Of a DNA stretch of 64,000 nucleotides, positions 5,848 to 44,384 are shown piece by piece; positions within the stretch are counted from its first letter, which is position 1; the number at the start of each line of letters is the position of its first letter. The DNA is from an uncultured Mycoplasmatota bacterium (GTDB lineage: Bacteria; Bacillota_I; Bacilli_A; RF39; UBA660), in contig CAMIXH010000003.1 of assembly GCA_946402735.1 (NCBI GenBank), positions 65,472-129,471 of the forward strand. The letters are read 5' to 3'. A program made the translations under genes and the position numbers. Below the pieces are notes generated by a model. The model was not told the DNA's origin. It worked only from the letters and a program-made list of their open reading frames with translations, and made no database searches.

Positions 5848-5849
5848 TA

Positions 5850-6610: not shown

Positions 6611-6629
6611 ATTATCACCTCATAAAAAA

Positions 6630-6647
6630 TAATTTGTTTACAAATTA
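6630..6647. promoter_or_regulatory. 18-bp perfect palindrome in the marR-trxA-trxB leader (candidate operator)
   Basis: taatttgtttacaaatta lies 20-37 nt upstream of the MarR start codon, just downstream of a tatgat -10-like hexamer on the minus strand. Confidence 0.45.
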
Positions 6648-6671
6648 ATTTTATCATACAATCATAATATT

Positions 6672-7259
6672 TTAAAGATAATCTTTAAAGTCTTCTTTTA
6701 TTTTTTTGCTTAAAGAACCCTCTCTTAAAAAGATAATTTTATTATTTTCTACCTTTATTAAAGTAGATGATTCGTTTTCTAAAGTACCCGCATCATATAT
6801 ATAAGACATTTTATTTTCTAATTCTTCATTTAATAGTGATACATCTGTTATTACTTCTTCATTTGTAATATTAGCGCTTGTTGATATTAAAGGTTTACCA
6901 AATTTATTAATTAAATCAAGCAAAAAATTATTATTAGGCATACGAATACCAACATACTCACTACCTTTTGTTAATTCATCACTGATCTTATCATTCTTTT
7001 TAAATAAAATTGTTAATGTATTAGGCCAATATTTATCTATTAGTTTTCTTTGCAATTCATCTATTTCTGATGTATATTCTTCTAACATTTTAATATTTGA
7101 AACCAGAATTAAATGAGGCTTGTTACTATGTTTAGCCTCATCTATTTTTTTAATTGATTCTATATTTGTAGCATCAGCGTGTATACCATAAACTGTATCA
7201 GTTGGTAATACTGCTAAATCTCCATTATTTAATACCTCCAGTAATTTATTATCTATCAT
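6672..7259 (-). CDS. tsaC: L-threonylcarbamoyladenylate synthase (YrdC/TsaC family)
   Basis: VLPTDTVYGIHADA and ISTSANI motifs of the YrdC/Sua5 domain. 195 aa. Confidence 0.8.
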   Translation of the reverse strand: MIDNKLLEVLNNGDLAVLPTDTVYGIHADATNIESIKKIDEAKHSNKPHLILVSNIKMLEEYTSEIDELQRKLIDKYWPNTLTILFKKNDKISDELTKGSEYVGIRMPNNNFLLDLINKFGKPLISTSANITNEEVITDVSLLNEELENKMSYIYDAGTLENESSTLIKVENNKIIFLREGSLSKKIKEDFKDYL

Positions 7260-8395: not shown

Positions 8396-8412
8396 ATTAA
8401 CACCTCACAAAC

Positions 8413-8441
8413 AAAAAAGAGTACTCAAAAAAGAATACTCT
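8413..8441 (-). terminator. terminator-like hairpin after DHH gene
   Basis: Arms agagtactc (8418-8426) and gaatactct (8433-8441) with one mismatch. The A-run at 8413-8418 gives a U-tract on the minus strand. Confidence 0.45.
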
Positions 8442-8512
8442 AAATCTCTAATTTTTTGGAACAATATGCATTTTTCATATTAACACTTCCTAATTATAGA
8501 ATACCATTTATA

Positions 8513-9586
8513 TTATTCATTTTCAATTCTTTTTAAAGATAATTGCATTTGATTGTCGTCAAGTATTTGATTTGGTGAATTTACTATGGCTGTTAACTCG
8601 TCTCTTACTTCACTTACAGTTTTTCCTTTTATTTTAGCAGCTGCTAGATGAGCTGATCCACCTGATTCGCTACTTAATAGTTTCATTATTCTTGATACAT
8701 CTATTGTCTCTTTACTTCTGGCACTAACAGACACAGTTTCTTCATCAACTTTTCCAATTGCGAATGTAATAAGAACATCAAAGTCAAGAAAATAGTCTGC
8801 TGCTTTTCCTATGTCTTCAGGGCAATATAGTAGTCTATTGTTTTCATCTTGACTACATATAGCATAGAATGGTTCTACAAGAGTAGCATGAGATATTATT
8901 CTTTGTATTTCTCTATCCTTTTTATAATTCTTTAAAAATAATTTATTTGCTTCAGTAGAATTAGCACCAATATGTACTAAATCAGCGCAAACTCTATATG
9001 TTTCTTCACTTGTATTAATTGTAGTTTTATTAGTATCTAAATATATACCTGCTAATAAGTAGTTAGCTTCATCTTTATTAATTGGAGCATCATATGCAAA
9101 TACTAATCTACTCATTTCTTCACAAGTACTAGATAGTGTAGGATTAGTAAATAAATAATCAGTCTTAATAGTATTTTCATCAACTTGATGATGATCTATA
9201 ACCATTATATTTTTAAATCTATCAAATATTTTTCTTGTTGATACCATATATGTTTTATTAACATCTACTGCTACCATTAAACTATTATCAGTAATTAGAC
9301 TTTCTGCTTCACTTAATGTAATTATTGGATACATTCCCTTTATTTTCTTTAATACCCCTCTAGTAGCAGATTCTATTTTTTCTATTTCATCATTTATAAT
9401 AATATAATATTTTTTATTATTCTTTTTGCAAATTGAAGCCAAAGCAATTGAAGAACCCAATGCATCCATATCGGGTCTATTATGTGGAACAATAAATACG
9501 GTATCACTTTGGGCTAACAGTTTATCAAGACAATCTTTAATAGCCATAGTATCCTGCATTGCTTCTTCTCCTTTTTTTATAAGCAT
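8513..9586 (-). CDS. DHH/DHHA1 family phosphoesterase (GdpP/NrnA-like catalytic domain only)
   Basis: HNRPDMDALGS, VIDHHQ and GGSAHLAAAKI motifs. No TM, PAS or GGDEF region. Confidence 0.75.
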   Translation of the reverse strand: MLIKKGEEAMQDTMAIKDCLDKLLAQSDTVFIVPHNRPDMDALGSSIALASICKKNNKKYYIIINDEIEKIESATRGVLKKIKGMYPIITLSEAESLITDNSLMVAVDVNKTYMVSTRKIFDRFKNIMVIDHHQVDENTIKTDYLFTNPTLSSTCEEMSRLVFAYDAPINKDEANYLLAGIYLDTNKTTINTSEETYRVCADLVHIGANSTEANKLFLKNYKKDREIQRIISHATLVEPFYAICSQDENNRLLYCPEDIGKAADYFLDFDVLITFAIGKVDEETVSVSARSKETIDVSRIMKLLSSESGGSAHLAAAKIKGKTVSEVRDELTAIVNSPNQILDDNQMQLSLKRIENE

Positions 9587-9634
9587 TATTTTAACTCTAA
9601 ATTTTTAAAAGTCAATTTGACAAATCAAAAAAAA

Positions 9635-9649
9635 TATGCTTTTAGCATA
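9635..9649 (-). terminator. weak AT-rich hairpin flanked by A/T runs
   Basis: tatgct ttt agcata, flanked by an A8 run upstream and an A5 run downstream. Confidence 0.35.
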
Positions 9650-9663
9650 AAAAAGATAGATTA

Positions 9664-10155
9664 TTATAATCTACCTTTTCCTCTTCCAACTTTTAGAAGT
9701 AAGTATTCTTCCATTTCTTCATCACTTTTTAAAGTTACTTCTTCTGTCTTTGGCCATATTCCATTATATGAACTTGTCCTAAATGTTTTTCCATCTTTAA
9801 CTTCATATTCATCATATACTCTATATTCTTTATCATCACCAAATACTAGTTCAAATAATCTATATACATTAGAAGTAACAAAATACTTACCATCTCTTAT
9901 TTCAACAGTGCCATATACCATTTTATTCTCTTCACCATTACTAATAGCACCATCAAATCTAACAATACTTCCTTCATCATTTAGATGCATAAATACAATA
10001 TCAAACTCTTTAGGTGAAGAATCTCTATAAACATATTTACTATTTTTTAATTCTATTGAATTTAATAATAAATTTAAAAAGAAATTTCTACTTTTTTCAT
10101 CCATATTTAATGCTGGAAATAATTGTTCTACTAATATACTCTCTTCGTTTGTCAT
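9664..10155 (-). CDS. hypothetical cytoplasmic protein
   Basis: The ORF track starts at 10176. I prefer the ATG at 10155 (MTNEES...) because a GGGGGT RBS sits 7 nt upstream. No motif recognised. Confidence 0.5.
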   Translation of the reverse strand: MTNEESILVEQLFPALNMDEKSRNFFLNLLLNSIELKNSKYVYRDSSPKEFDIVFMHLNDEGSIVRFDGAISNGEENKMVYGTVEIRDGKYFVTSNVYRLFELVFGDDKEYRVYDEYEVKDGKTFRTSSYNGIWPKTEEVTLKSDEEMEEYLLLKVGRGKGRL

Positions 10156-10210
10156 TTTAATACCCCCCAATTGCATAATATATTATACATATAATAATTT
10201 TTAATGCAAG

Positions 10211-10232
10211 AAAAAAGGAACAATTTGTTCCT
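10211..10232 (-). terminator. terminator after rpsP-KH operon
   Basis: Arms aggaaca (10216-10222) and tgttcct (10226-10232). The A-run at 10211-10215 gives a U-tract on the minus strand. Confidence 0.55.
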
Positions 10233-10473
10233 AAAATGAATCTATATTTACTTTAACTCTATTATTTCCTTCATTATAAGCTTTTGCTTGTATTAAAGTT
10301 TTAATACTGTTTGCTATTTTTCCTTTTTTACCTATTACACGACCCATATCTTCTTCGCTAACAGCAATTTCAATAACAGTTTCTTCACCATCTTCAAATT
10401 GTTGTACTTTAACTAGATCTGGTTCTTTAACAAGTTTTTTTACAATTAATTCAGAAAAGTCAACTAAATTCAT
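10231..10473 (-). CDS. KH-domain RNA-binding protein (YlqC family)
   Basis: 80 aa. GRVIGKKGKIANSIKTL is the KH GxxG loop. It sits in the conserved position directly after rpsP. Confidence 0.8.
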   Translation of the reverse strand: MNLVDFSELIVKKLVKEPDLVKVQQFEDGEETVIEIAVSEEDMGRVIGKKGKIANSIKTLIQAKAYNEGNNRVKVNIDSF

Positions 10474-31414: not shown

Positions 31415-31783
31415 TTATTCTCCACCGCCGTCGTCGCTACCATCTTCGCCAGTTTTATTTGTACAAGACCATGGTGAATTAATACATGTCATACAATCTT
31501 CATATGAATTATCACCAACGATAGTCATAACTACACCAACTAGTGATACTACTAAGAATACAAGTACAGCTGCGATAGCACGTTTAATAAGTTTTTGTTG
31601 TGCTTCTTTAATTTTATCTTCACTCTTTTCAGTAACAGCTTTTGCTAAGTCAACCATACCTACTACGATTAAGATAATTGGTACAATAACTTTAATTCCC
31701 CAAATAACTATTCCTACTATTCTTAGTACTGGTCCTAAACCACTACATACTTCTGCAGCATCTAAAATATACATATCTAACAC
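31415..31783 (-). CDS. small two-TM membrane protein, paralogous to the N-terminal module of 57582..58757 (VirB2/TrbC-like topology?)
   Basis: VLRIVGIVIWGIKVIVPIILIVVG...KLIKRAIAAVLVFLV aligns with VIRIVKIIITIIKIVVPIILMVSL...KIIAAVLVFYI of the other protein. Cys-rich C-terminus CMTCINSPWSC. Confidence 0.5.
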   Translation of the reverse strand: MLDMYILDAAEVCSGLGPVLRIVGIVIWGIKVIVPIILIVVGMVDLAKAVTEKSEDKIKEAQQKLIKRAIAAVLVFLVVSLVGVVMTIVGDNSYEDCMTCINSPWSCTNKTGEDGSDDGGGE

Positions 31784-31850: not shown

Positions 31851-32831
31851 TTACAAGTTAATCTTGTTAGCGAATTTTTTAATTGGATCAATATTCTCTT
31901 GTCTATCATCGACTGGAGGTATTGAAAATAATACGCTTAATTTTGTTTCATATTCAAATGTTGCTATATCTTCACTTCCAAGACTACATTTATTTAATAT
32001 AATCTTTTTATCTTTTAATTTTTCAAGTATACCTTTATTTTTCTTCATCATACGATTAATCATAATTGTTGATGGTTCAATTAAATAATATACTTCAGTA
32101 CAAATATCAACATCTTCATAACTATTTAAATCTACGAATATAATATCGCAAGCATTTCTCTTCATTATTTCTTTTAAAAGATCTGTAGCATTTGCACTAA
32201 CCATATCTTTATCATTGAAATATAAGAAATCTACTTTATCAACTTCTACAGCAGATACATTTCTATATCCATTTAGCATTTTCTTTAGCATATAGATAAG
32301 TGATGTACTACCTGCATGTGAAGTAACATTCTTAAATCCTATAATTCTTAGTTTTCTTCCACCACCATCAGATATAGGACCTGGATCTGAAACATAGTGC
32401 TCAACAATAGTTGTTTGTTGTTGAGGAGCTTCTTGTCCTTGATTTAAATCTTGTAAACTATGGATATTAACAACATCTCTATAAGTATGTGGATGTACTA
32501 ACAAATAGTTAATACCCTCAGCATTCTTAGTGAAGTTATAAATACCAAGTGAGATAAGTTTAGAAAGATATGATTTAGATTCAGTTTCTGGAGAATCATC
32601 TAATAAAAGTATAACATTCTCCATATTGATATTCATTGCTAGCTTTTGTAAATTATCAGTATTTTGATAATCTCTAATAGCAGTAATATCTAAAATCATT
32701 TTGTCATAATAGAAATTAGCAAAAGTATCTATAATTTCATCAACATTATAAACACCTTCTAATGACTTCATAACCTCAATGTTTAATCCCATTAATAGTT
32801 CTTTATATTTGTTATAAACCATTACATTCAT
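31851..32831 (-). CDS. TadZ/CpaE-like protein (receiver-like N-domain + ParA/MinD-like domain with degenerate P-loop)
   Basis: Position in the Tad cluster. RIIGFKNVTSHAGSTSLIYML occupies the place of the KGGVGKT deviant Walker A. IIFVDLN is Walker-B-like. Confidence 0.45.
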   Translation of the reverse strand: MNVMVYNKYKELLMGLNIEVMKSLEGVYNVDEIIDTFANFYYDKMILDITAIRDYQNTDNLQKLAMNINMENVILLLDDSPETESKSYLSKLISLGIYNFTKNAEGINYLLVHPHTYRDVVNIHSLQDLNQGQEAPQQQTTIVEHYVSDPGPISDGGGRKLRIIGFKNVTSHAGSTSLIYMLKKMLNGYRNVSAVEVDKVDFLYFNDKDMVSANATDLLKEIMKRNACDIIFVDLNSYEDVDICTEVYYLIEPSTIMINRMMKKNKGILEKLKDKKIILNKCSLGSEDIATFEYETKLSVLFSIPPVDDRQENIDPIKKFANKINL

Positions 32832-32851: not shown

Positions 32852-33358
32852 CTAATCTAAGTTTTCAGTACAAGGATAATTACTCATATCAGAATAAATT
32901 GTTCTTGTTTCTCCAGTAATTGGTATTTTTACTGTTATATTAATAACTGGTAGTTTCAATGCAATATAAGTAGTAATTTTATAATGTGTGTTTGAATTTG
33001 GTACATTATTAGGACAATATTTAACAACACAATATCCACCTTCTGTTGTTACATTTTGTGAACCGTTTTGTGTTCCTTCACAAGCTATTCCTTGTGATCC
33101 AGTATAATTGTAACCTGTATTTCTTATAAGCTTATAAGCTTTTCCTTCCACAGTTTTACTCAATTCTTCTTCAGTTCTCGATGCTATATCACCTTCACCA
33201 ATAGTATATCCTTCATATTCTTCTATAAAAGATATAATATTGTTTTTAACATTGAAAGCTTTAGTATAACTAATAGAATAAGCTAAGAATCCAGAGAAAA
33301 AGAATATAAATACAATTACTATACCAAATAACCAAGCTCCACCAATTGACTCTCTCAT
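32852..33358 (-). CDS. TadE-like pseudopilin/minor pilin
   Basis: Short leader MRESIGG followed by the hydrophobic helix AWLFGIVIVFIFFFSGFLAY. It follows the pilin-like gene. Confidence 0.5.
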   Translation of the reverse strand: MRESIGGAWLFGIVIVFIFFFSGFLAYSISYTKAFNVKNNIISFIEEYEGYTIGEGDIASRTEEELSKTVEGKAYKLIRNTGYNYTGSQGIACEGTQNGSQNVTTEGGYCVVKYCPNNVPNSNTHYKITTYIALKLPVINITVKIPITGETRTIYSDMSNYPCTENLD

Positions 33359-33390
33359 ATATTTAAACTCCTTTTAATTCCCGTACTTAA

Positions 33391-33429
33391 AAAAACTATA
33401 AACTATAATCACTATAGTTTATAGTTTTT
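33391..33429 (-). terminator. strong hairpin directly after the pilin-like gene
   Basis: Perfect 14-bp arms aactataaactata (33394-33407) and tatagtttatagtt (33413-33426), extendable by 3 A:T pairs. Loop atcac. Confidence 0.8.
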
Positions 33430-33437
33430 ATTCTTTA

Positions 33438-33680
33438 TTAATTTATTCCTACACAGCTTTGACCTTTACAGCATTTCCACTCATTAACTTTTGCATTTGA
33501 ATCATTTAATTGAGTAGTAAGCTTTGAGGCTTGCCATCCGTCTCCATAAGTATTACATGTTTGTTGTACAAGCATTCTTTGTACCATAGGCCAAATAACT
33601 AGGTAAAAAACTGCTCCTAATGCTGCTACTGCAATTAAAGTAACAACTGTCATATTTAATTCACCTGTCGCTTCTTTCAT
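33438..33680 (-). CDS. Flp/type IV pilin-like small protein
   Basis: 80 aa. Leader MKEATG followed by the hydrophobic segment ELNMTVVTLIAVAALGAVFYLVIWPMV. Strong AAGGAGG RBS. The canonical Flp EY motif is absent. Confidence 0.5.
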   Translation of the reverse strand: MKEATGELNMTVVTLIAVAALGAVFYLVIWPMVQRMLVQQTCNTYGDGWQASKLTTQLNDSNAKVNEWKCCKGQSCVGIN

Positions 33681-33713
33681 TTATTAAATCCTCCTTATAT
33701 TTCTACTAATTTA

Positions 33714-33742
33714 ATTATATAACATAATTTTTTTTTATTCAA
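33714..33742 (-). promoter_or_regulatory. dedicated promoter for the pilin-like gene
   Basis: On the minus strand: TTGAAT (plus 33737-33742), a 17-nt spacer containing A9 (plus T9 at 33728-33736), then TATAAT (plus 33714-33719). Confidence 0.55.
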
Positions 33743-33752
33743 TCATTTTTCC

Positions 33753-34562
33753 TTACATACTGCCAAACATTTGTAAAAGAGAGAATAAAATGATTGCCAT
33801 AACACCTGCTCCTGTTGAAACAAGCATTGTCATTGTTTTCTTTTCCATTGTATCTAATCTTTCTTTATACTTAGTATCTCTTGATTTAGCTTGTAAGTTA
33901 GAAATTGTTCTAGAGAATGTAATCAATTGTTCTTGTTTTCTTTCTTGACTACCAAGACTAAGTCTATAAAGAAGTCTCATCATACGCATTGAATCTCTAA
34001 CTGGATAACGTCTAGCAAATGCCATATATGGCTCTATTGTAGAATCTCCAGCATCAATAGATGCAATTAATTCACGAAGACCAGGTTTAAACATTTCTGG
34101 TGCTTCTTCTAAACTTCTAGTAATTGCTACTGGAACTGTATAGTGTTGAATCAAGATTTCTAAACTCTTTAAATAATATGGTAGTTTTAAATTAATTTCA
34201 TGTAGATGAGCTTTATAAAATCTTTTTAACTTACTATAATCATCTTTAAATATTAAATATGTTAAACCAAATACAAGTACTAGTTTTACAGCAAAGTTTA
34301 TTCCAGATACACTAGTAATCATTATTACTATACCTATTATAAATGTTAATATTGCTGTTTTTACTCTTTTATTAAATCTTTCATTAGGATCTACTTTTTC
34401 TCCATATCTACTATTTACATAAAAGTCATAATCTTCTTCTTTTAGTTTTGAGAATACTGCTTTATTATCTGTAACAAATTTATTAAAACTAAATGCTCCT
34501 ATGTAATTAAATACTAATATTAAAATAACTCCTACTGCTAATATTTCAATTCCTGTAAACAT
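33753..34562 (-). CDS. tadC: type II secretion system F-family membrane protein (TadC-like)
   Basis: 269-aa polytopic protein with a central soluble helical domain. Start/stop overlap with the TadB-like gene, downstream of tadA. Confidence 0.6.
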   Translation of the reverse strand: MFTGIEILAVGVILILVFNYIGAFSFNKFVTDNKAVFSKLKEEDYDFYVNSRYGEKVDPNERFNKRVKTAILTFIIGIVIMITSVSGINFAVKLVLVFGLTYLIFKDDYSKLKRFYKAHLHEINLKLPYYLKSLEILIQHYTVPVAITRSLEEAPEMFKPGLRELIASIDAGDSTIEPYMAFARRYPVRDSMRMMRLLYRLSLGSQERKQEQLITFSRTISNLQAKSRDTKYKERLDTMEKKTMTMLVSTGAGVMAIILFSLLQMFGSM

Positions 34563-35461
34563 TACTCAGCACCTACATCCTCATGGTAATATTTAATTCC
34601 TGTAACTAGGAAGAATGTATTTATAAGTATTACCCCATGAAGTAATACTACTACATACCATTGTTCAAGTAATTTTATATAACTATCATTTCCTAATAAT
34701 AATTGAACTAATAATATCAAGAAATATAAGGCTATACCGAATGTTACAAATTGTTTAAAGAAGTTTGCTCTATCAATTCTATCACGATATACACTTTCAA
34801 CAAGCATATCTATATCTTGTGACATACCTTCTAAAGCTTCACCCGAGTCTTTAGAACCTTCTTTTGTTATTTGAATAAATAATTGATGCATATTTCTAAT
34901 AATGTAGTAATCATATTTTTCATTCATAAATCTTATTGCTTCATCTATAGTACCATTATCATATGCCATTTGAATCATTTCTTTAATATCACTTAGAAGT
35001 GGATCTTCAAGTACTCCTGAATCTCTAACACCTTCTAATGATTTAACGAATGATTGAGTTGTGTTATATTCCATAATAACGTTAGTTGTATATATTTGAA
35101 CTTCTTCAAATATATATTCACTATATACCTTTTTGCATCTTAGATATGCTAAATATGGAACAAACAATATTGCCGCTACAGCATATATTATTGACCAAAT
35201 AATACTATAGAAATATAAGTATGCAACAAAGGCAGCTACTACACCGAATAGTATAACTTGTCCTATATATTGCTTTGAAGTATATTCTTGTCCTAATTCT
35301 TTAGCTTTTTCTCTAACTACTTTAAAAGAATAAGGAGCATATCTTTCATAAGTATTACCTATTGTTCTTGCAATAAACTTATATGAATTGTTACCAGTAT
35401 TTTTTCTATAAATATAGATAAATACAAGAATTGCTGCAATTACAAATACTTCTATATACAT
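34562..35461 (-). CDS. tadB: type II secretion system F-family membrane protein (TadB-like)
   Basis: 299-aa protein with the same architecture, immediately after the ATPase. Confidence 0.6.
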   Translation of the reverse strand: MYIEVFVIAAILVFIYIYRKNTGNNSYKFIARTIGNTYERYAPYSFKVVREKAKELGQEYTSKQYIGQVILFGVVAAFVAYLYFYSIIWSIIYAVAAILFVPYLAYLRCKKVYSEYIFEEVQIYTTNVIMEYNTTQSFVKSLEGVRDSGVLEDPLLSDIKEMIQMAYDNGTIDEAIRFMNEKYDYYIIRNMHQLFIQITKEGSKDSGEALEGMSQDIDMLVESVYRDRIDRANFFKQFVTFGIALYFLILLVQLLLGNDSYIKLLEQWYVVVLLHGVILINTFFLVTGIKYYHEDVGAE

Positions 35462-35473
35462 CTTCTACACCTC

Positions 35474-36787
35474 CTACATTTCAACTATTTCTAGTCCATT
35501 ATTAACTTGTGTACTTACCCCCACTCCAACAGCACTTGTTGCTACTTGTGAAACTGGTGAAACCGGAGCAACTGCTGGTTTTGGTGTTACTGGAGCAGCT
35601 GGTGCAACTGGGGCTGCTGGTGCAGCTTGTGTTGTTTGTGCTACCGGAGCAACATTTGGTTGGGCAACTGATGTTGCCTCATTATTTATCTCACTGAATT
35701 CATCAGATGATTCCGTTATTTCTTCTCCTTTTGGAATAAAAGGATCTTCTCTCATTACTACACCTTGACTAGCTAAGTAATCAATTAAATGAGATGTTGG
35801 GTTATTATATCTTTCATTTCCTGCTAAATCTCTTTGATATAAAACATTTGCTTTAGCTTCATTAGCTTCATCATCTACATAGAACTCAACAACTTGAGTA
35901 ATTTCTCTTTGGAATCTATCATATTTCTTAGAATAGAAACCTTTAACATGAATACCCAATTGAATATATCTATGCATACTTTTAACAAATTGATCAATAT
36001 CTTGACTTGATTCAAGAAGTGAATATAAACGCATTGGAATACTTGATGCTTTATCAGAGTGTATTGTTGATAAAATGTTGTGTCCTGAAGAAATACTATT
36101 TCTAACAGCAGTAACAGCTTCAGCAGAACGAACCTCTGATAGTAAAATCCATCTTGGGTTTTGACGCATACAAGCTACAAGAACTTCTGAATATGAAGCA
36201 ATATTATTTGTTTTCATTGCTACAATATCTCTTGTTGGATAAATCTTATCTAAGTGAAGTTCTAGTGTATCTTCTATAGTTATTATCTTTTCATCTTCTT
36301 TTATATGGCTGGCTAAGTATTTAACAAGCTCTGTTTTACCTGAACCAGTTTCTCCACTAACAATTATATTGCAGTGTCCTACAACACAAGTCATTAAGAA
36401 TTCATGAAGTTTTAAAGATACATAATCTTCTTTTATTAATTTTTCTTTATTTAACCTAATCATCGCTGGTGTTTTTCTTATAAGAACAGCGATTCCATTA
36501 GTTGCTATTGAATCGTGAACAAAATTAAGACGTAACTCAGCACTTTCAGCATCTAGTAATGGATGGGCCATGTTAAAAGTTTTACCCATAACGTTAGAAC
36601 ATTGGAAAGCTAGTTTTTCCATAACATCATTATTTAAACCTTCTATATGTTCTTGGTATACACCTTTGGATAAAGATTTAACCCACAATTGTCCACCATT
36701 AGAATATGAAATATCGGTAATATCGTCATTTTCTAATAATGGCATTAGCAAACCAAAATCTATTTGTGAAAATACAATTGCGTCCAT
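35474..36787 (-). CDS. tadA: CpaF/TadA-type secretion ATPase with Pro/Ala/Val-rich C-terminal tail
   Basis: Walker A SGETGSGKTE, IITIEDTLELH, RQNPRWILLSEVR, and HNILSTIHS (His box). Confidence 0.9.
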   Translation of the reverse strand: MDAIVFSQIDFGLLMPLLENDDITDISYSNGGQLWVKSLSKGVYQEHIEGLNNDVMEKLAFQCSNVMGKTFNMAHPLLDAESAELRLNFVHDSIATNGIAVLIRKTPAMIRLNKEKLIKEDYVSLKLHEFLMTCVVGHCNIIVSGETGSGKTELVKYLASHIKEDEKIITIEDTLELHLDKIYPTRDIVAMKTNNIASYSEVLVACMRQNPRWILLSEVRSAEAVTAVRNSISSGHNILSTIHSDKASSIPMRLYSLLESSQDIDQFVKSMHRYIQLGIHVKGFYSKKYDRFQREITQVVEFYVDDEANEAKANVLYQRDLAGNERYNNPTSHLIDYLASQGVVMREDPFIPKGEEITESSDEFSEINNEATSVAQPNVAPVAQTTQAAPAAPVAPAAPVTPKPAVAPVSPVSQVATSAVGVGVSTQVNNGLEIVEM

Positions 36788-36825
36788 TTTTATTCCCTTT
36801 CGTTTATTCTTTTTTTAATTCTTTT

Positions 36826-37620
36826 TTATTCTATTACTGTAATACTCTTATCTACATCTATTTTTTCGATAATATCAGGTTCTAAATATTGAGAATTACT
36901 TTCGATATAAGATAATATCTTTTCATTACCTAATGTAGTTTCAGCATTATAGCTTGCATTTCTTGGAACTGGTAATATTGTTCCACCAGAAATGTAGTAA
37001 GCTCTCTTAATAACTGAGAACATTTCATCTGGTACAGCAAATATTAATGCTTCTGCATTCTTTTGTTCTGCACTCTTCTTGAAAATGTGTGATCCATTTT
37101 CATCTTTAACTGCTAGTACTTCAATACCTTCAATTAAAGGTCCTAAGAACATTTTATTATTTACTGTATTTTGATAATATAAGTCAATTTTATCTCCAGG
37201 ATAAATTGAGTTTCCAAATGTAGAAGTTGAATTAACTTTTAATGAGAAAATTGTGTATCCCTCTTGAATATCAGCCCAAGCTGAGTCTGGCATTTGTTTC
37301 CATTCAACTACTGCACTTCTATAGAACATTCCACCTTCTGGAATATAAGTATTATAATTAACATATTTTCCTAATAAGTCATTTTTATTAATAATAACAT
37401 TACTAGTAATCATAGAATGAGCAACTTTAACAGTTGTAAATAAATCTTCTGTGATTTCTTCTCTTGCTTGAATATCTCTTTTAGCAATTGGTACACTTAC
37501 AGCATTTATTGCTGTATTTACTCTATATCTATAAGCAAAGAATAGAATAACTATACAAGCTATTAATGATAATAAAGTAACAATACTTTTGTTATGAAAT
37601 AATTTACTAAAGAATTTCAT
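36826..37620 (-). CDS. CpaB/RcpC-like Flp pilus assembly protein (TM + SAF domain), copy 2
   Basis: N-terminal TM. VPIAKRDIQAREEITEDLFTTVKV is SAF-like. Collinear with copy 1. Confidence 0.55.
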   Translation of the reverse strand: MKFFSKLFHNKSIVTLLSLIACIVILFFAYRYRVNTAINAVSVPIAKRDIQAREEITEDLFTTVKVAHSMITSNVIINKNDLLGKYVNYNTYIPEGGMFYRSAVVEWKQMPDSAWADIQEGYTIFSLKVNSTSTFGNSIYPGDKIDLYYQNTVNNKMFLGPLIEGIEVLAVKDENGSHIFKKSAEQKNAEALIFAVPDEMFSVIKRAYYISGGTILPVPRNASYNAETTLGNEKILSYIESNSQYLEPDIIEKIDVDKSITVIE

Positions 37621-38438
37621 TATTCACTACACCTCCCTGTTTCTGCCTTATCTAATTGAAATAATTCATCACTTACAGCATTACTTCTAATTTCTTCTTC
37701 AATTAAACTATTTACTATTGCTGTTTGTTTTGGATTTTTTGAATAATTAGCATTTCTTTGAACAGGTATTATTCTACCAACGTTACGATTCTCAGCTATC
37801 TTCAAAAGTCTAAATACTTTGTTTGGCACACTAAATAACAAGAATGCTGGCACTCCTGGATCTCCATTAGTTTCAAATACATTGTTACCATTTGAATCAG
37901 TAACAGATAAAACTTTAATACTTTCAATAAATTTTCCAAACCATACCACTTGTTGTCTATTTACTACTTTAGATGTTTCAAAGTAAAGGTCAATATAGTT
38001 TCCTGGGAAAATTGAATTTCCATATGTTGTTTCAGGATCTACTTTCAAAGCATATACTGTATAACAATCTGGAATATCTTCAAATTCACTTGAAGGCATA
38101 TCCTCCCAATTAACTACCATACTACTATAGAACAAACCATTTTCTGGAATAACTGCCTTATTTGAAACATATTTTCCAATGATTAAGTCCTTATTAATTA
38201 TGGCTCCTCCCTTTACAATTCCACCTGGAACTTTCTTAACCGCAACCATATCAGATGTGATTAATGTTCTAGGTCCAAGCTCCCTTGTTGCATATGGAAC
38301 ACTAACTGGATCAGTAGCTTTCTTAATTCTAAGATAGTATGCTCCATATAGGATTCCTAGCGATGCTAAAATAGCAATAATAGTAACAGTATTTTTATTT
38401 TTTAAAAATCTTTTAATACCAACTAATATACTTCCCAT
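37620..38438 (-). CDS. CpaB/RcpC-like Flp pilus assembly protein (TM + SAF domain), copy 1
   Basis: N-terminal TM. VPYATRELGPRTLITSDMVAVKKV is SAF-like. Shares ..YGNSI(F/Y)PG..IDLY.. with copy 2. Confidence 0.55.
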   Translation of the reverse strand: MGSILVGIKRFLKNKNTVTIIAILASLGILYGAYYLRIKKATDPVSVPYATRELGPRTLITSDMVAVKKVPGGIVKGGAIINKDLIIGKYVSNKAVIPENGLFYSSMVVNWEDMPSSEFEDIPDCYTVYALKVDPETTYGNSIFPGNYIDLYFETSKVVNRQQVVWFGKFIESIKVLSVTDSNGNNVFETNGDPGVPAFLLFSVPNKVFRLLKIAENRNVGRIIPVQRNANYSKNPKQTAIVNSLIEEEIRSNAVSDELFQLDKAETGRCSE

Positions 38439-38475
38439 TTTTATTCCTCCATATATTCTTACATTATTCTAATTA

Positions 38476-38505
38476 ATTATAACACAATTCTTTTTTGTTT
38501 TTCAA
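38476..38505 (-). promoter_or_regulatory. promoter of the Tad-like operon
   Basis: On the minus strand: TTGAAA (plus 38500-38505), an 18-nt spacer ending in TGT, then TATAAT (plus 38476-38481), giving an extended -10. Confidence 0.55.
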
Positions 38506-38551
38506 TACAAACTAAAAAATATATATTAAATGGTTTACAATTAATATAAAT

Positions 38552-38583
38552 TAAAAATAGTTTAGGTTAAAAACCTAAACTAT
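38552..38583 (-). terminator. terminator after yfhO-like gene
   Basis: Arms atagtttaggtt (38557-38568) and aacctaaactat (38572-38583), with a U-tract on the minus strand. Confidence 0.7.
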
Positions 38584-38585
38584 TC

Positions 38586-41123
38586 TTAAAATAATGACAA
38601 AACATATATTTTTAATATGAAAAATGCAAATGCTATAAATGATATAGTAAACAATGGATAAACTATTATTTTACTATTCATAAAACGTAGCTTTTTATTA
38701 ATTAGATTTAGTACAACAAATATTAGAAGTGAAACCACTGATATTATAGCCCCCATCTTAAACCATTTTTGTTTATATACTACTTCAATTACATTATTAC
38801 CCTTCTTAACATCTATAGATAACAAGTTATATAAATTGCATTTATAATCAACTTTTTCACCATTAACTCTTACTTCATAATTAGAAGTATAATTAATTGG
38901 TAATAATACACTTGTATCTTCTAAAGCATTATATGTGTATGTTTTAGTTGTACCACTAGTTTTTACACTAACATCTTGATTTCCATATGTATTTATAAAT
39001 TTATTAAATTCAGTTTCATCAAATTCATACAATGTATAATTCATATCTATATTAGGTAATCCAAATTTAACAATTCCATCAACATTACTTTCGAAAGATA
39101 CCATATCTACAAAATACCTAATTGAAATATCTTTATAATATGAGATTTCTTTTTCTTTATACTTAAAGTCTAAATCTACTTGCTCTTGATTCTTCAATTT
39201 TTCATTTGCCTGATCTTTATCAAACTGAATAAACAATATATAAGTTTTACCCTTTTTTGCATTAAATACTAAATAATCATCTTGTATTTTAGAATTAATA
39301 CTATTATAAATATCTTTATTACCATTAAATAATGTTTTGTAAATCTTATTTGAATTAGCAAACACATCTTCTTCTGTTTCATTATATTCTTTTCCGTTAT
39401 ATGGAATTAAATAACTTAGATTATTAATAGCCTTATAATAATTGATATCATCTTTTGAAGTTATTAATTCGTAATACTTTTCATTTAGTTTTCTGCTTGT
39501 TATATAGTACTTGTTTTGCATTAAAGCATTATTAAAGAGATTACCACCTTTTGAATTTATTATAGTATCAGTACCACTATATCCCAAGTATTCTCTTTGA
39601 TCAATTTCACTTTGCTCTACAAAATGAATTCTATTTTCAAGACTAGGTACTTCCAATATATATGGAAAGTTCATATTAGTATCGGATAATTCTAAAACAT
39701 AATTATAATTATCATTTACTAAATCAAATTTATCTCTTAATGTTTGCATAATCAAAGATGTTTGATCTGGTAAGAATTGCATGTATAAAAGACCAAAGTT
39801 TAATGATTGCATTGTTACTAATACTGCTGTTAAGATTATTGCTTTCTTTTTATCATTTTTTAATATTAGCATGTATGCAATTATATAAACTATAAAGATA
39901 ACTAATAAAACTATGTAACTAGGTGTTTGAATATATCCACTTGCATAGTAGTTACCATCATAGAAGTCTTTTCTTGTCACCAAGAACGTGATAACTATAT
40001 TAATCATTAAAAATACAGGAACTAGTATTTTTAAATAACTAGTGTTTTTAGCAGGTTTATAATTGTTATTTAAATAATAAATACTTGTTAATATCATAAA
40101 GAACATTATTTGAAATCCATATCTTAATGGGAATCCAGAATGTGATCCTGTATGCCATAAAGCATTTATTGGTTCAATAAACACTCCAAGTAGTAGCATA
40201 GCTAACATAGCAATAATAAACTTATTATATTTTTTATCTTTCTTAACAAATAATTGTTTAATACATAAAACAAAAGGTATTGCTAAAGTAAATAGATATG
40301 ATGACTTTTCAATAAAGTAAGCAAATATACCATCATTACTTGCATTATTAGCCATTCTAGCACTACTACGAGCAAACATAAATCCTGGTAAGAATAATAT
40401 GCATGACATTAATAAAGAAAATAATGTACATACTAATACTTTAATAGCTTTCTCTTTTTTATGATCAGTTTTCATAAATATTAAAGCAAGTCCTGTTGTT
40501 CCAATTATGAATAATAAATCTAACCATGCTATATAATAATTCAACAATAATGTTATTGTTAATAATACAGTATAAAGTTTCCAATTACCCTTCTCTAATA
40601 GCTCTTTTAATGAATAAACAAGTAATGGATATATTGCTATTGCATCTAAATACAATAAATTAGTAGACATTATAAAGAAATAACAACTAAGTGAATATAT
40701 TAAAGTAAATATACATTTATATAATCCTTCTGTTTTAGGGAATATTTTTCCAATAGCTATATATGTCATTAAAGAAATAAATGCCATTTTTAATAAAAAT
40801 ACATATGAAATTGTATATGGAATACTATCTCTACTAAATAATCCAATTATCCAACATAGTGGAGAAATAAAACCATTTCCTATTAAAGAACCAAATGCAT
40901 TTAATCCACTTCCAAGATTCCAATCGAAAAGTGCAGTACTTCTAAAATGTAACACATCCCATAATTTATAATATGCAGGGATATATCCACTATCAAAATC
41001 TATTAATGTAATAGTTCTTGATCCAAATGGGTATATATTACTGCAATAAAAAATAATACCATACCCCGCAATAGTTAATAAAACGCATATAAGTAAATAC
41101 TTATCAAATTTAAATTTTTTCAT
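38586..41123 (-). CDS. YfhO-family polytopic membrane glycosyltransferase
   Basis: 845 aa. The N-terminus YPFGSRTITLIDFDSGYIPAYYKLWDVL...WNLGSGLNAFG matches the YfhO signature. Many TMs and a C-terminal extracytoplasmic domain. Confidence 0.8.
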   Translation of the reverse strand: MKKFKFDKYLLICVLLTIAGYGIIFYCSNIYPFGSRTITLIDFDSGYIPAYYKLWDVLHFRSTALFDWNLGSGLNAFGSLIGNGFISPLCWIIGLFSRDSIPYTISYVFLLKMAFISLMTYIAIGKIFPKTEGLYKCIFTLIYSLSCYFFIMSTNLLYLDAIAIYPLLVYSLKELLEKGNWKLYTVLLTITLLLNYYIAWLDLLFIIGTTGLALIFMKTDHKKEKAIKVLVCTLFSLLMSCILFLPGFMFARSSARMANNASNDGIFAYFIEKSSYLFTLAIPFVLCIKQLFVKKDKKYNKFIIAMLAMLLLGVFIEPINALWHTGSHSGFPLRYGFQIMFFMILTSIYYLNNNYKPAKNTSYLKILVPVFLMINIVITFLVTRKDFYDGNYYASGYIQTPSYIVLLVIFIVYIIAYMLILKNDKKKAIILTAVLVTMQSLNFGLLYMQFLPDQTSLIMQTLRDKFDLVNDNYNYVLELSDTNMNFPYILEVPSLENRIHFVEQSEIDQREYLGYSGTDTIINSKGGNLFNNALMQNKYYITSRKLNEKYYELITSKDDINYYKAINNLSYLIPYNGKEYNETEEDVFANSNKIYKTLFNGNKDIYNSINSKIQDDYLVFNAKKGKTYILFIQFDKDQANEKLKNQEQVDLDFKYKEKEISYYKDISIRYFVDMVSFESNVDGIVKFGLPNIDMNYTLYEFDETEFNKFINTYGNQDVSVKTSGTTKTYTYNALEDTSVLLPINYTSNYEVRVNGEKVDYKCNLYNLLSIDVKKGNNVIEVVYKQKWFKMGAIISVVSLLIFVVLNLINKKLRFMNSKIIVYPLFTISFIAFAFFILKIYVLSLF

Positions 41124-41165
41124 TTTCTCAAATCCTCTTCTAATACTAATTATACAATATTTCCA

Positions 41166-41197
41166 ATAAAAAAAATATCTAAATAAATTAGATATTT
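41166..41197 (-). terminator. terminator after dockerin-pilin gene
   Basis: Arms aaatatctaa (41173-41182) and ttagatattt (41188-41197). An A-run upstream gives a U-tract on the minus strand. Confidence 0.6.
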
Positions 41198-41204
41198 TTA
41201 TTTT

Positions 41205-42017
41205 TTAATGTGAATTAGCAAGTGCTGTCTTCATTCTTTCTAAATCAGCAGTGTTAATAGTTCCATTACTATCTGTATCAGCAATGATTCTTTGTCTTGC
41301 TGTTAAACCACCAGTATTACATGTATTCTTGCTTAAGCATCCTGCTATTATATCTACATCTGTTTGATTGAAGTTTCCATCTCCATTAACATCTAGAGGT
41401 GTTCCACTATATAATGCTTTCTTTAATAAGATAACATCTATATTATTACATGTATTATCATTGTTAACATCAATAACACTCTTCTTATCGCCACAAGATC
41501 CACGATTTAATGAAATGAATTGTTCAATTAGTGGAATATCATCTTCACTAAAGTTTCCATCTCCATTAAAATCTCCAGTAGTTGTTGAATAAATAATATT
41601 GAATTCTCCTGTTGTTTCAGTTGTTTCTAAAATACCAGTTATGAATGTATTTACTTCAATATCAGTTCCATTATTCTTAATTATTGTTTCACCTGTATTA
41701 GTTCTTATTCTAATTGTTGCTTTTGGTGGATATTCATAAATATCATAAAAGTCTAATTGATAAGTTCTATCAGGATTAACACTTTCAGCAAATCTTCTTG
41801 TAAATACTGAAACAAATTTTTCTCTAGACATAACTAATTTTCCAGATTTCATATATGTTCCATAATCGATAGCATCATACATAGATGCTCTTAGTATTTC
41901 TCTACTTAAATAATAATCTTGTTCATTTGTTGTTGTTAAATTTTGTACTAGGAATAATACAGCTATAATAACTAATCCTAGACCAATAATCATATAACCC
42001 CACATGGATTCTTTCAT
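41205..42017 (-). CDS. pilin-like (TadE-type leader) protein with two C-terminal dockerin modules
   Basis: Leader MKESMWG plus the helix YMIIGLGLVIIAVLFLV. Four EF-hand loops: DFNGDGNFSEDD, DVNNDNTCNNID, DVNGDGNFNQTD and DTDSNGTINTAD, each followed by an amphipathic helix. Confidence 0.55.
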   Translation of the reverse strand: MKESMWGYMIIGLGLVIIAVLFLVQNLTTTNEQDYYLSREILRASMYDAIDYGTYMKSGKLVMSREKFVSVFTRRFAESVNPDRTYQLDFYDIYEYPPKATIRIRTNTGETIIKNNGTDIEVNTFITGILETTETTGEFNIIYSTTTGDFNGDGNFSEDDIPLIEQFISLNRGSCGDKKSVIDVNNDNTCNNIDVILLKKALYSGTPLDVNGDGNFNQTDVDIIAGCLSKNTCNTGGLTARQRIIADTDSNGTINTADLERMKTALANSH

Positions 42018-42072: not shown

Positions 42073-42714
42073 TTAAATACCATGTTTAACTTTTCTATAT
42101 TTATCACTAAATAATGATATAGAAAGAATAGTACTAATTACTGCTAAAAGTATTTTAATGCCCCAAGTAGTTAAGAAAGTCATTACTTTTGACATCATCG
42201 TTTCTTCTGTTTCTACCTCTTCTTTAGTAGTTTTTTGACTAATAGTATGATTATAATTATAAATTGATTTTTCTAATAATGATTTAGTAACTTCAACGTT
42301 AGTAAATTGTGACTTACACATAAGTAGAGTTTCTTCATAACCATTACACATACTACTACCATAATATTTATTAAAATAAGGCTCTTTTGTTACGATTCTT
42401 TTTAAAGCAGTGCAACCATCATCTCCATAAATATCAATGGATACTTTTTCACCACAAGGTATTTTAGAAATAACTATTGTATTATCAGATCCTACTTTAT
42501 ATTTCTTATCATTATATTCAGCATACATTCCTCCAAATAAGTTATAAATTGTTATTGTAAAAGAATTAGCTGATTTTATATAGTTGTTATCATAAGTAAT
42601 ATCTTCTGATAAACTTATATACTCCTTATGTTTCTCCTTATCACAAGTTTTTTCTTCATCTGCATAAACAATAAAAGGAATCATTAATAGTATTAATAAA
42701 ACTATTTTTTTCAT
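42073..42714 (-). CDS. exported Cys-containing protein with C-terminal TM anchor (paralog of 48699..49355)
   Basis: Signal peptide and a C-terminal TM plus basic tail. SIDIYGDDGCTALKRIVTKEPYFNKYYGSSMCNGYEETLLMCKSQFTN aligns with TIEVYGNKESKCDGQLLKKLSYTVPRFNRKVKDARCVGNSDLELCKTFTN. Confidence 0.5.
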   Translation of the reverse strand: MKKIVLLILLMIPFIVYADEEKTCDKEKHKEYISLSEDITYDNNYIKSANSFTITIYNLFGGMYAEYNDKKYKVGSDNTIVISKIPCGEKVSIDIYGDDGCTALKRIVTKEPYFNKYYGSSMCNGYEETLLMCKSQFTNVEVTKSLLEKSIYNYNHTISQKTTKEEVETEETMMSKVMTFLTTWGIKILLAVISTILSISLFSDKYRKVKHGI

Positions 42715-44384
42715 TGCTTACCACCCTTTTCTTCTTTTAATAATACTGCATGTACTACAAGTCTTCTATTATTACCACCAGTACATGTAGATAATGTTAA
42801 TATTTTATCATTAACGCCAACTTTAGTATCATTCTTAAACATGCTTCTTTTTCTGATCATATTTATGAATTTTTCTTTATCTTTATTTGAACTAAATTTA
42901 ACTTTTAAATAATCAGTTGTGTAATCTACTTTATATACAGAGAATATTTTGAAACTCATTGTTCCTTTCTCTGTAGTTAAAGATATTACTAAATTATCCT
43001 CTTCTTTTCTCCAACTACTGTTAGTTACTTTTCTAAGTGTTCCAAACATAGTTCCATTTAACATACTATGTCCATATATTATTGTATTATCATCCATTTT
43101 TTTAACATTATTTCTATAATCAAAGAATAAAGCACCAATACTTGTTTTTCTCTTATAAATATCATGCTTTAAATAATAATTATTATCTGAATGCTTTAAT
43201 ACTGGATAAGATATTTTAGTATTTTTAACTATCAAATACCCTTGTACTTCTTTATTAATCTTTTTTAGCCCTTTTATTGAAGGAGTAAATGTATATCTAT
43301 CTGTAATTTCTTTCTCAGTTAATTTATTAGCATCTTCCATTCCATCTTCAGAAACTTCAGGAATATAAACTGATTCTTCTTCACCTAGTTCATCTAATTC
43401 GTCATCACTTGTATCTATAAAACTACTAGCATCACTTAATATTCTATTTCTCATTTGTTCTACATTGATTTCTTCAATATAATCATATGACTTTACTATT
43501 ATTAATGATACTACGCATACATAAATACATAATATTGATGCTAATTTTAAATTATTAAATGTTAATTGTTTAAATAAATTAGAACTCAAGAATGAATTAG
43601 CATATATTATTCTAAACTCACAAGTATAACTTTCTTTGCATTCATTACTTATTTTCTTTAACCATTCAAAGTTACTTACTATAAAGTCTCCTTTATCATA
43701 TCCTTGATGCAAATAAATAATTACATTTTTAGACTCATCATTTTTAACTTGTTTAACTATTGCTTCAATTAAACTTTTAGAATATGTATAAATATGAATA
43801 GCTTTAAGATTATAGTTTAATTTAAGAAACTCTCTTAAATCATCCATTACACCTGGATATTCCTCATTTATTTTAATTACCTTTTTATAATATAATGTAT
43901 CTATTTCAAAAGCATCTTGTTGCATTAAGAATCTATCACTTATTTTTATGTCAGATGAAAATACAACTTCACATCCTCTTTTTGAAAATTCATTTTTAAT
44001 CTCTTTAGGCATATAAAAGCAATATATATGTTTAAGTGTATTTAATTCTAGTAATTGATTATAATCAGTAAGACTAAGTGTAGAATCAAATTCTAAAACT
44101 AAAGTCTCAATACTTAGTTTTTTCATTACTTCAATTGGATATTTAAATGTTACTAATCTTAATATCTTTATTGAAGTAAATCCTCCGCTTGATAATACTC
44201 CAGTTATATCTTTTATATGTTTTTTAAAATATTTTAGATCATAATAAAGAGAATCTTTATAATAATTGTTTTTATTAATAAAGACAGTTTCATCATCAAG
44301 AAGCGTTCTATAATTAAACACTAATGTATTATCTAATTTTGTTAAAACAAAATATTCCTTCATTATATCTCCAATATTATACAT
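42711..44384 (-). CDS. class B-like sortase fused to a ~280-aa N-terminal cytoplasmic domain
   Basis: The C-terminal third carries NTIIYGHSM (His), ILTLSTCTGG (TLxTC Cys) and NRRLVVHAV (Arg). A TM (LASILCIYVCVVSLIIV) lies around residue 285. Confidence 0.7.
   Translation of the reverse strand: MYNIGDIMKEYFVLTKLDNTLVFNYRTLLDDETVFINKNNYYKDSLYYDLKYFKKHIKDITGVLSSGGFTSIKILRLVTFKYPIEVMKKLSIETLVLEFDSTLSLTDYNQLLELNTLKHIYCFYMPKEIKNEFSKRGCEVVFSSDIKISDRFLMQQDAFEIDTLYYKKVIKINEEYPGVMDDLREFLKLNYNLKAIHIYTYSKSLIEAIVKQVKNDESKNVIIYLHQGYDKGDFIVSNFEWLKKISNECKESYTCEFRIIYANSFLSSNLFKQLTFNNLKLASILCIYVCVVSLIIVKSYDYIEEINVEQMRNRILSDASSFIDTSDDELDELGEEESVYIPEVSEDGMEDANKLTEKEITDRYTFTPSIKGLKKINKEVQGYLIVKNTKISYPVLKHSDNNYYLKHDIYKRKTSIGALFFDYRNNVKKMDDNTIIYGHSMLNGTMFGTLRKVTNSSWRKEEDNLVISLTTEKGTMSFKIFSVYKVDYTTDYLKVKFSSNKDKEKFINMIRKRSMFKNDTKVGVNDKILTLSTCTGGNNRRLVVHAVLLKEEKGGKQ

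Follow-up and report, generated by a model that had tools for sequence, protein, structure and literature searches.

Within a 64,000-nucleotide stretch of the genome of an uncultured Mycoplasmatota bacterium (part of contig CAMIXH010000003.1; hereafter the window), three genes of one Tad-like locus encode proteins that begin with the same short motif, M-[KR]-E-[SA]-x-(x)-G, and run from it directly into a hydrophobic helix. We propose that these proteins are near-leaderless Flp- and TadE-like subunits that are not cut by a prepilin peptidase of the A24 family, a reading to which we assign a probability of about one half. The conserved glycine that closes the motif is probably not a prepilin-peptidase cut site, whereas the original prediction, made from the letters of the window, had placed it at the end (position −1) of a class III signal peptide, with one processing enzyme suggested for all three proteins. 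Their place in a Tad-like locus and, for the two larger ones, a helix-plus-sheet architecture in structure predictions support the view that all three are pilin-like subunits marked by a common N-terminal signature.

An N-terminal motif confined to three genes of one locus

All genes of the region, including these three, lie on the minus strand. An 80-amino-acid (aa) open reading frame (ORF) at 33438-33680 encodes the candidate Flp-like major pilin, composed of a hydrophobic helix and a C-terminal head with four cysteines; it follows the TadC-like gene directly in all loci, and its N-terminus is MKEATGELNMTVVTLIAVAAL (MKEATGELNMT), of which codons 1-6 (MKEATG, 33663-33680) form the proposed ‘leader’. 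The second protein, of 168 aa (32852-33358), is pilin-like by position and architecture, occupies the TadE position, holds four invariant cysteines and starts with MRESIGGAWLFGIVIVFIFFF (MRESIGG, codons 1-7 at 33338-33358). The third, of 270 aa (41205-42017), starts with MKESMWGYMIIGLGLVIIAVLF (MKESMWGY; codons 1-7, MKESMWG, at 41997-42017) and is a modular, pilin-like protein with a DUF5411 domain (Pfam PF17424, E 1e-49) and two C-terminal dockerin repeats (Dockerin_1, E 6e-14). The PF17424 match (168 bits, above the gathering threshold) aligns residues 1-133 with profile positions 1-133 of 134, so the family profile itself begins at Met1.

Each of the three is the longest possible ORF, and a Shine-Dalgarno sequence lies 6-9 nt 5′ of each ATG (AAGGAGG, AAAGGAG and AGAGAGG). 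Together with the 594 family clusters that begin at the same residue (see below), these features rule out mis-called starts.

We measured how unusual the motif is across the whole genome (1.28 Mb in 15 contigs, 27% GC, 85% complete). The pattern ^M[KR]E[SA].{1,2}G was matched by just these three among 3223 ORFs of at least 40 aa. An M[KR]E start was found in 38 of the 1839 ORFs of at least 60 aa, and one followed by S or A in 3 of 1839, the same three proteins. All three lie inside 9.2 kb of the 1.28 Mb, and in each the glycine is followed by a transmembrane segment. The N-termini are thus as first described, and their exclusivity goes beyond chance; the proteome-wide scan suggested alongside the original prediction, with 3 hits in 3223 ORFs, brought up no unrelated protein.

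Conservation of the N-termini

Across 24 species of the window’s genus, the pilin start reads MKEA[TS]GELNMT and is invariant even though overall identity is about 55%; the 168-aa protein begins M[RK]E[SA][IM]G[GSA]xW and the DUF5411 protein MKE[SA]xW[GA]Y. This conservation extends beyond the genus to a second family, and the pilin N-terminus was invariant in 26 species. Over about 40 genera of the window’s family the pilin core is M-K-[EA]-A-x-G-E-x-x-x-T, with E7 invariant, G6 nearly invariant, K2 and A4 near-invariant and E3 not invariant. The start of the 168-aa protein is likewise conserved over about 40 genera, with G6 kept in 119 of 120 sequences; its 221 homologues are all annotated as ‘hypothetical’ and carry no Pfam domain. 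Among the DUF5411 homologue clusters, position 7 is G in 106 of 119 and A in the other 13, and 118 of 119 retain Y8.

Searched with a pilin profile, a set of 1.84 billion representative proteins yielded 594 clusters. Profile position 1 was the protein’s own residue 1 in almost all of them, and none had a longer leader; the MKEATGELNMT start was almost invariant and the C-terminal halves were divergent. Residues 2-6 were as invariant as residues 7-13, unlike the leaders of canonical prepilins, and therefore behave like mature residues. The pilin is encoded in at least 534 species genomes, titled as uncultured Bacilli, Mycoplasmatota/Tenericutes and ‘Clostridium sp. CAG:1000/CAG:628/CAG:524’, which we take to be the RF39 group.

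Paralogues occur in many genera of the family (L098, L099, L103, L108, L110, L114), with two pilin genes and two to three tandem copies of the 168-aa gene. A few of these paralogues have the glycine replaced (MKEAISELN, MKEATQEVN, MKESINNAF, MKATISLTT). In the metagenome-assembled genomes of two species of the genus, DUF5411 genes contain one to eight in-frame stops (G004:C5:16434-21479 and G007:C1:772863-773261), as does the 168-aa gene of G007, which may reflect decay of the locus or assembly error in those genomes.

Prepilin signatures and the A24 peptidase

If the 6-7-residue segments were short class III signal peptides cut by PilD after the glycine, the mature proteins would begin ELNMT…, AWLFG… and YMIIG…, and the substrates would constitute a new prepilin class without Glu(+5). 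We consider this unlikely, though it accounts for several observations. In all three proteins a glycine at position 6 or 7, a residue accepted at −1 as is alanine, stands directly before a hydrophobic stretch of about 20 residues; this glycine (or alanine) is strongly conserved, and the layout of short polar N-terminus, glycine and hydrophobic segment fits a prepilin, as does the Tad-like locus. A genome search for A24 peptidases, as suggested with the original prediction, found exactly one, of the PilD type with a Cys-rich N-domain, outside the locus on contig C1 at 290.8 kb, where it adjoins a PilC-like gene (C1:289.3-291.3 kb). In the window’s family an A24 gene was found in 48 of 49 and in 49 of 50 related, pilin-bearing genomes (about 98%), and cleavage after the glycine is therefore possible there.

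The sequences themselves argue for a different interpretation. Counted from the glycine, +5 is T in the pilin, G in the 168-aa protein for a cut behind G7 (F for one behind G6) and again G in the DUF5411 protein, so that neither Glu nor Asp occupies this position in any of the three; the pilin has Glu(+5) only if +1 is set at residue 3, with E7 as +5. MKEATG, MRESIGG and MKESMWG each contain one basic and one acidic residue, giving a net charge near zero, and their −2 residues are T, G and W rather than basic. The supposed leader residues are also as invariant as the helix. Canonical substrates in the same genome look quite different: 13 prepilins follow M..[KN]G/FTL[IV]ELL with Glu(+5), and their basic leaders vary in length and sequence, the mature N-termini being invariant despite this. 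As had been stated from the outset, the motif of the three proteins departs from both the Flp G/xxxxEY and the type IVa G/FTLxE patterns.

The canonical prepilin genes lie on contigs C1 (for example C1:240620-241148 and C1:321028-324490), C2, C3 (outside the window) and C5. Giants of 1153 and 973 aa are among them, and at a contig end (C3 and C5) an N-terminal part recurs almost unchanged.

None of the genomes examined has an A24 gene within or close to the locus, the window contains none, and the locus lacks a TadV gene. Co-occurrence of locus and A24 gene within the family was dropped as a test, since PilD is near-universal there owing to the canonical pilins. One genome, G235, apparently lacks an A24 gene yet has 14 canonical prepilin motifs, probably because of an assembly gap.

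G037, a genome from another family, is 99% complete with 1% contamination. Its locus is intact, with core proteins 50-63% identical to those of the window, and the pilin starts with MKEASGELNMTV (MKEASGELNMT), the 168-aa homologue with MREALGF and the DUF5411 protein with MKEPFLLVGF. We found no A24 match in this genome (best E 3.9) and no GFTL[IV]E motif, versus 13-14 such motifs in the window’s own genome (G000), G041 and G235. That G037 keeps the locus without an A24 peptidase speaks against removal of the segment by a shared enzyme of this family. An A24 match was likewise absent, even at E ≤ 10, from four genomes of family f8 (G077, G278, G285 and G362) that carry a remote version of the module.

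The minimal module of these f8 genomes (L211-L214) comprises the ATPase and proteins of 235, 226, 112 and about 50 aa. The 112-aa proteins start M[SGA][YS]K[LIF]G/F[LI]LSL, which resembles a six-residue prepilin leader; the proteins of about 50 aa start MSEFKATLLG or MSEIKGQLLG.

At C76, 9843-18628 of G037 (L090), the only close relative outside the family, T4SS-like genes come directly after the locus. They encode a pair of T4SS_pilin-like proteins, a membrane protein of 765 aa, a P-loop ATPase of the TraG/VirB4 type (595 aa) and a wall hydrolase of the M23/amidase type (853 aa). A Gram-positive conjugation system may thus be the source of the module or its travelling companion.

Sister loci and an alternative register

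Remote sister loci share the gene order DUF5411-like, CpaB, ATPase, TadB-like, TadC-like. In two of the genomes that carry them, G311 and G074, the platform genes are followed directly by pilins of 48-57 aa that start with MKAFFEEYGLVLVV, MKAFIEEYGSTCVV and MKLFIEEYGMTVV (MKAFFEEYG and MKAFIEEYG types). These are the longest ORFs and have no glycine ahead of the EY pair, and one of them matches Pfam Flp1_like (PF16982) with E 1.3e-4, below the cut-off. Counted from the TadV site, Glu(+5) and Tyr(+6) define Flp pilins (PMC3244431); the G311 and G074 pilins therefore equal Met-Lys plus a mature Flp.

In an ungapped alignment of the sister pilins with the family’s short pilins, the MKA start, E7 and a C-terminal QW coincide. 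Alignment of the two families with hhalign gave the same one-to-one register, with MKEATGELNMTVV on MKAFFEEYGLVLV and E7 on E7, at a weak score (E 0.0034, probability 9.6%). From this register we infer that E7 of the window’s pilin would correspond to Glu(+5) of Flp and type IV pilins (T4P) and G6 to +4, leaving only Met-Lys ahead of the mature start. A near-leaderless register of this kind accounts for E7 and the ‘leader’ being invariant, for a relative that has the locus and no A24 gene, and for the missing Glu(+5) behind the glycine. Accessory proteins of these loci have 6-9 polar or aromatic residues that end in aromatic-Gly (IYG, VYG, FEFG, SQFG, and SMWG in the DUF5411 protein); this ending resembles the ‘EYG’ element ahead of the hydrophobic core of Flp rather than a −1 glycine. 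A literature search on ‘leaderless Flp pilin’ returned nothing relevant.

The missing Glu(+5), the invariant ‘leader’, the homologous MKAFFEEYG pilins without a glycine ahead of EY and the A24-free G037 all speak against placing the glycine at −1 of a class III signal peptide. The suggestion that the proteins form a distinct prepilin class thus holds up in part: they do constitute a distinct, conserved N-terminal class tied to one Tad-like machine, whereas prepilin cleavage at the glycine is not supported.

Predicted architecture and proposed mechanism

We modeled the two larger proteins with AlphaFold 2 (AF2) from 112-sequence alignments. The 168-aa protein was predicted (mean predicted local distance difference test score, pLDDT, 86) to combine a helix over residues 5-47 with two short ones and a β-sheet, and the DUF5411 module (pLDDT 81) to consist of a helix over residues 2-48 and a β-sheet. 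Both thus have the pilin layout of an N-terminal helix of about 45 residues and a β-sheet, and, judged by this predicted architecture only, both would belong to the pilin fold. Invariant cysteines are confined to the C-terminal parts, consistent with an N-in/C-out topology.

Cleavage of a Sec-type signal peptide by signal peptidase I was considered and rejected, as the n-region is non-basic and the entire hydrophobic segment is invariant. The AF2 models contradict it too: the hydrophobic segment and the amphipathic part that follows form one continuous helix.

Under the near-leaderless reading, the 80-aa Flp-like pilin would be the fiber subunit, and the 168-aa and DUF5411-dockerin proteins would be accessory or minor pilin-like subunits. 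In each, the shared start would lead into the hydrophobic segment as the beginning of a long α1 helix, which would anchor the subunit N-in/C-out in the membrane and later pack in the filament core. Translation would begin at the equivalent of the mature Flp/TadE N-terminus or one or two codons ahead of it, with E7 of the pilin as the counterpart of Glu(+5) and W6-G7-Y8 of the DUF5411 protein as an echo of the Flp aromatic-Gly motif. The basic residue at position 2 (K or R) may replace the positive charge of the new N-terminal amine. ATPase and platform would then extract and polymerize the subunits without A24 cleavage, or after loss of one to two residues.

The same three proteins could be understood more modestly. 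At most the 80-aa protein would then be a fiber subunit. The 168-aa protein and the DUF5411 protein would be common accessory proteins anchored in the membrane N-in/C-out, and their short conserved stub on the cytoplasmic side would touch the ATPase or the platform, or would simply mirror a favored context for translation initiation (AAA/AGA GAA after ATG). The lack of any pilin family or fold match for these two proteins fits this account, as do the high frequency of MKE starts, seen in 33 of the 1839 ORFs of 60 aa or more of this AT-rich genome, and the dockerins of the DUF5411 protein, which would suit a wall-anchored role. We nevertheless hold it to be distinctly improbable: [SA]4 and the glycine are conserved far beyond a codon-context effect (about 40 genera; for the DUF5411 protein, the genus and 119 clusters), a continuous N-terminal helix of about 45 residues with a small β-sheet domain is the layout of pilins, and equivalent small proteins with an N-terminal helix flank the machine genes in all related loci.

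Least probable by our estimate is processing by a non-A24 enzyme, such as an unrecognized membrane protease in the locus or elsewhere, that recognizes M-[KR]-E-[SA]: the prefix is highly conserved and common to three otherwise unrelated proteins, the locus persists in an A24-free genome and several of its conserved proteins have no assigned family, but searches of the conserved locus proteins turned up no protease-like domain, the account adds a component without direct support, and we know of no precedent in type IV filament systems.

Several observations weigh against near-leaderless, uncut subunits. An A24 peptidase is available in almost all related genomes that bear the pilin, and the substitution of the pre-helix glycine mainly by alanine (106 G to 13 A in the DUF5411 protein) is the tolerance of a −1 position. 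G037 is the only close relative without an A24 gene; its locus lies beside type IV secretion system (T4SS) genes and could be a recent acquisition. The register with the EEYG-type pilins comes from three sequences and an hhalign probability of 9.6%, and placing G6 at +4 leaves its near-invariance unexplained. Structural comparison adds no anchor: Foldseek searches of the PDB with the modeled proteins returned nothing at E < 0.06, PDB sequence and profile searches with the three proteins and the TadB/TadC-like proteins returned nothing meaningful, and the pilin and the 168-aa protein were tied to no known pilin by Pfam, NCBIfam, PDB sequences or Foldseek.

Composition of the locus

The locus is a very divergent Tad-like machine and a core locus of RF39-like gut Bacilli, an identity that follows from its two CpaB genes, a T2SSE ATPase whose nearest PDB relative is CpaF, and a conserved gene order. 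The two CpaB/RcpC-like proteins (37620-38438, Pfam RcpC and SAF, TIGR03177 1.8e-7; 36826-37620, Pfam RcpC 2e-7, TIGR03177 2.5e-10) precede the CpaF/TadA/VirB11-type secretion ATPase (35474-36787, Pfam T2SSE 7e-28), whose closest PDB relatives are CpaF (8rkd/9e24, E 1.6e-19) and archaeal FlaI. Two polytopic platform proteins follow, a TadB-like one (34562-35461) that adjoins the ATPase in all related loci and a TadC-like one (33753-34562); both are named from position and topology only, as neither had a Pfam match (no T2SSF) or a PDB match. Of 49 genomes sampled from the family (about 40 genera), 43 encode the TadC-like protein, and remote versions occur in four other families. The pilin gene comes directly after the TadC-like gene in every locus, and the pilin, 80 aa in the window, measures 47-110 aa in relatives.

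Neither the pilin nor the 168-aa protein belongs to a Pfam or NCBIfam family. The pilin has no Flp/Fap match (PF04964, E ≤ 0.1) and no EY pair, and the 168-aa protein has no match to TadE models (PF07811; Pfam, NCBIfam), with which it shares its position after the pilin gene and an N-terminal helix. The labels ‘pilin-like’ and ‘TadE-like’ given at first therefore hold for gene position and architecture and find no backing in these family databases. After the 168-aa gene comes a 326-aa protein (31851-32831) at the TadZ/CpaE position. It has no Pfam or NCBIfam match, and its putative TadZ-like identity is suggested by this position and by GFKNVTSHAGSTS, read as a degenerate P-loop; the G037 counterpart, 38% identical, likewise follows the 168-aa gene. 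The last gene encodes a 122-aa membrane protein (31415-31783) weakly similar to T4SS_pilin/Mbov_0395 (PF18895 E 0.003 and NF045849 E 0.009, both below cut-off), which is kept at the end of the locus, G037 included.

The conserved core thus runs from a large protein through DUF5411, one or two CpaB proteins, ATPase, TadB-like, TadC-like, pilin, 168-aa and TadZ-like proteins to the 122-aa T4SS_pilin-like protein, and further species of the genus share this order, as does G037. A YfhO-family membrane protein (38586-41123, Pfam YfhO 4e-67) between the DUF5411 gene and cpaB lies outside the core and is missing from this position in G003, G011, G022 and G037. In the window’s genus the locus is flanked by LtaS-like and LCP genes.

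The DUF5411 module (about 135 aa) is constant between species (L002-L031), and its C-terminal extension varies from none to about 350 residues, giving proteins of 137-489 aa; in the window the extension carries the two dockerin repeats. Tandem DUF5411 gene pairs occur in G002, G010 and G012, and our literature search on DUF5411 found one incidental mention. A 557-aa sortase-domain protein (42711-44384) has an N-terminal extension of about 380 residues without a family match, and the large proteins next to it have no obvious C-terminal sorting signal.

Wider reading and significance

To our knowledge, prepilin-peptidase cleavage is treated as universal in type IV filament biogenesis (T4P, type II secretion systems, Com, Tad, archaella and archaeal pili). 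If its subunits do have an invariant, non-canonical start of 6-7 residues and it does persist in an A24-free genome, this conserved and very widespread Tad-like system would be a clear exception. It spans at least 534 species genomes, and its pilin 594 clusters; as a minimum, a new class of substrates would be established. In the literature that we searched, we found no description of this N-terminal class, nor of a Tad-like system that does without a prepilin peptidase.

A broader possibility, which we offer tentatively and consider doubtful, is that a widespread lineage of Tad-related machines, with members in RF39-like Bacilli, in Erysipelotrichales-like families and in the pLS20 genes 36-41 block of Gram-positive conjugative plasmids, polymerizes subunits that are made essentially mature, without any prepilin peptidase. 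In such a lineage Lys2/Glu7 would appear to replace the salt bridge between the N-terminal amine and Glu5, and pLS20-like mini-pilins would appear to carry a swapped Glu2/Arg7 pair. This would break the rule that all members of the type IV filament superfamily need an A24 peptidase, and Gram-positive conjugation systems, thought to be pilus-less, would have a filament. The link also suggests a function for the pLS20 gene block in Gram-positive conjugation. The organisms concerned are abundant uncultured gut Bacilli with reduced genomes, in which surface filaments and dockerin-tagged subunits are probably central to attachment to partners or hosts.

Comparison with known systems

Among described systems we compared the locus with Tad/Flp (type IVc) pili, namely Caulobacter Cpa, Aggregatibacter Tad, Bifidobacterium breve Tad and the Gram-positive Flp-like loci of Imam et al. 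2011 (PMC3244431). It shares with them a CpaF-type ATPase, a CpaB/RcpC-like protein, two polytopic platform proteins, a protein at the TadZ position, and a tiny pilin gene right after tadC, behind which a protein with an N-terminal helix takes the TadE position; the absence of a secretin is as expected for a monoderm. Unlike them, it has no TadV in the locus, no Flp_Fap, TadE or T2SSF Pfam matches and no G/xxxxEY motif. Its polar N-termini comprise just 6-7 invariant residues, the pilin head is disulfide-rich, and the locus includes the modular DUF5411 subunit and a T4SS_pilin-like protein. The three proteins resemble the PilD-associated canonical prepilins of their own genome in having a short N-terminus ending in glycine, a hydrophobic helix and an N-in/C-out topology, and differ from them in lacking a variable basic leader, Glu(+5) and the M..[KN]G/FTL[IV]ELL start.

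Plasmid conjugation modules offer a second parallel. Homologues about 30% identical to the window’s ATPase occur on 632 Gram-positive plasmids, 362 of them conjugative, and the ‘VirB11’ (gene 37) of the pLS20 family is 32% identical to it (E 1e-49). The Bacillus velezensis pLS20-family plasmid NZ_CP019039.1 (L217) holds a block at 3981-10337 that parallels the window’s locus, encoding in order a thioester-domain protein, a 126-aa protein with an N-terminal transmembrane segment, the CpaF/VirB11 ATPase, two polytopic proteins (267 and 245 aa), a 114-aa protein that again has an N-terminal transmembrane segment, and proteins of 47 and 65 aa. The 47- and 65-aa single-transmembrane mini-proteins begin with six-residue polar starts, MEQNSGRLFLAMGAVII and MEPNTDRLYWTIGVII (MEQNSGR and MEPNTDR). 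Speculatively, and from two sequences, their E2/R7 looks like a charge swap of K2/E7 in the window’s pilin.

In gene order and protein sizes the pLS20 block (genes 34-41: the TIE thioester adhesin, gene 36, ‘VirB11’ gene 37 and genes 38-41; PMC8557374, PMC8092201) is like the window’s locus; sequence kinship is limited to the ATPase and a weak match of one platform protein with a sister locus (E 2.5e-4). A tblastn search of plasmids with the TadB-like protein gave one weak match, in Exiguobacterium. The plasmids lack CpaB and TadZ-like genes, whereas the window’s locus is chromosomal and syntenic within its family, with no adjacent VirB4 or VirD4. Functions of pLS20 genes 36 and 38-41 are unassigned, and pLS20 plasmids are said to encode no pilus components (PMC8557374).

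The Tad-like pilus cluster of TANB77 also contains ‘pilin-like’ proteins that could not be classified (Kim et al. 2024, PMC11680825). TANB77 and the window’s organism are both uncultured Firmicutes of the gut with reduced genomes, and the TANB77 cluster has CpaB, TadZ/CpaE, TadA, TadB/C and several short one-transmembrane proteins called pilins from context only. TANB77 differs in belonging to the Clostridia and in having a fused TadB/C, and the likeness of its cluster to the window’s locus is one of gene content as described.

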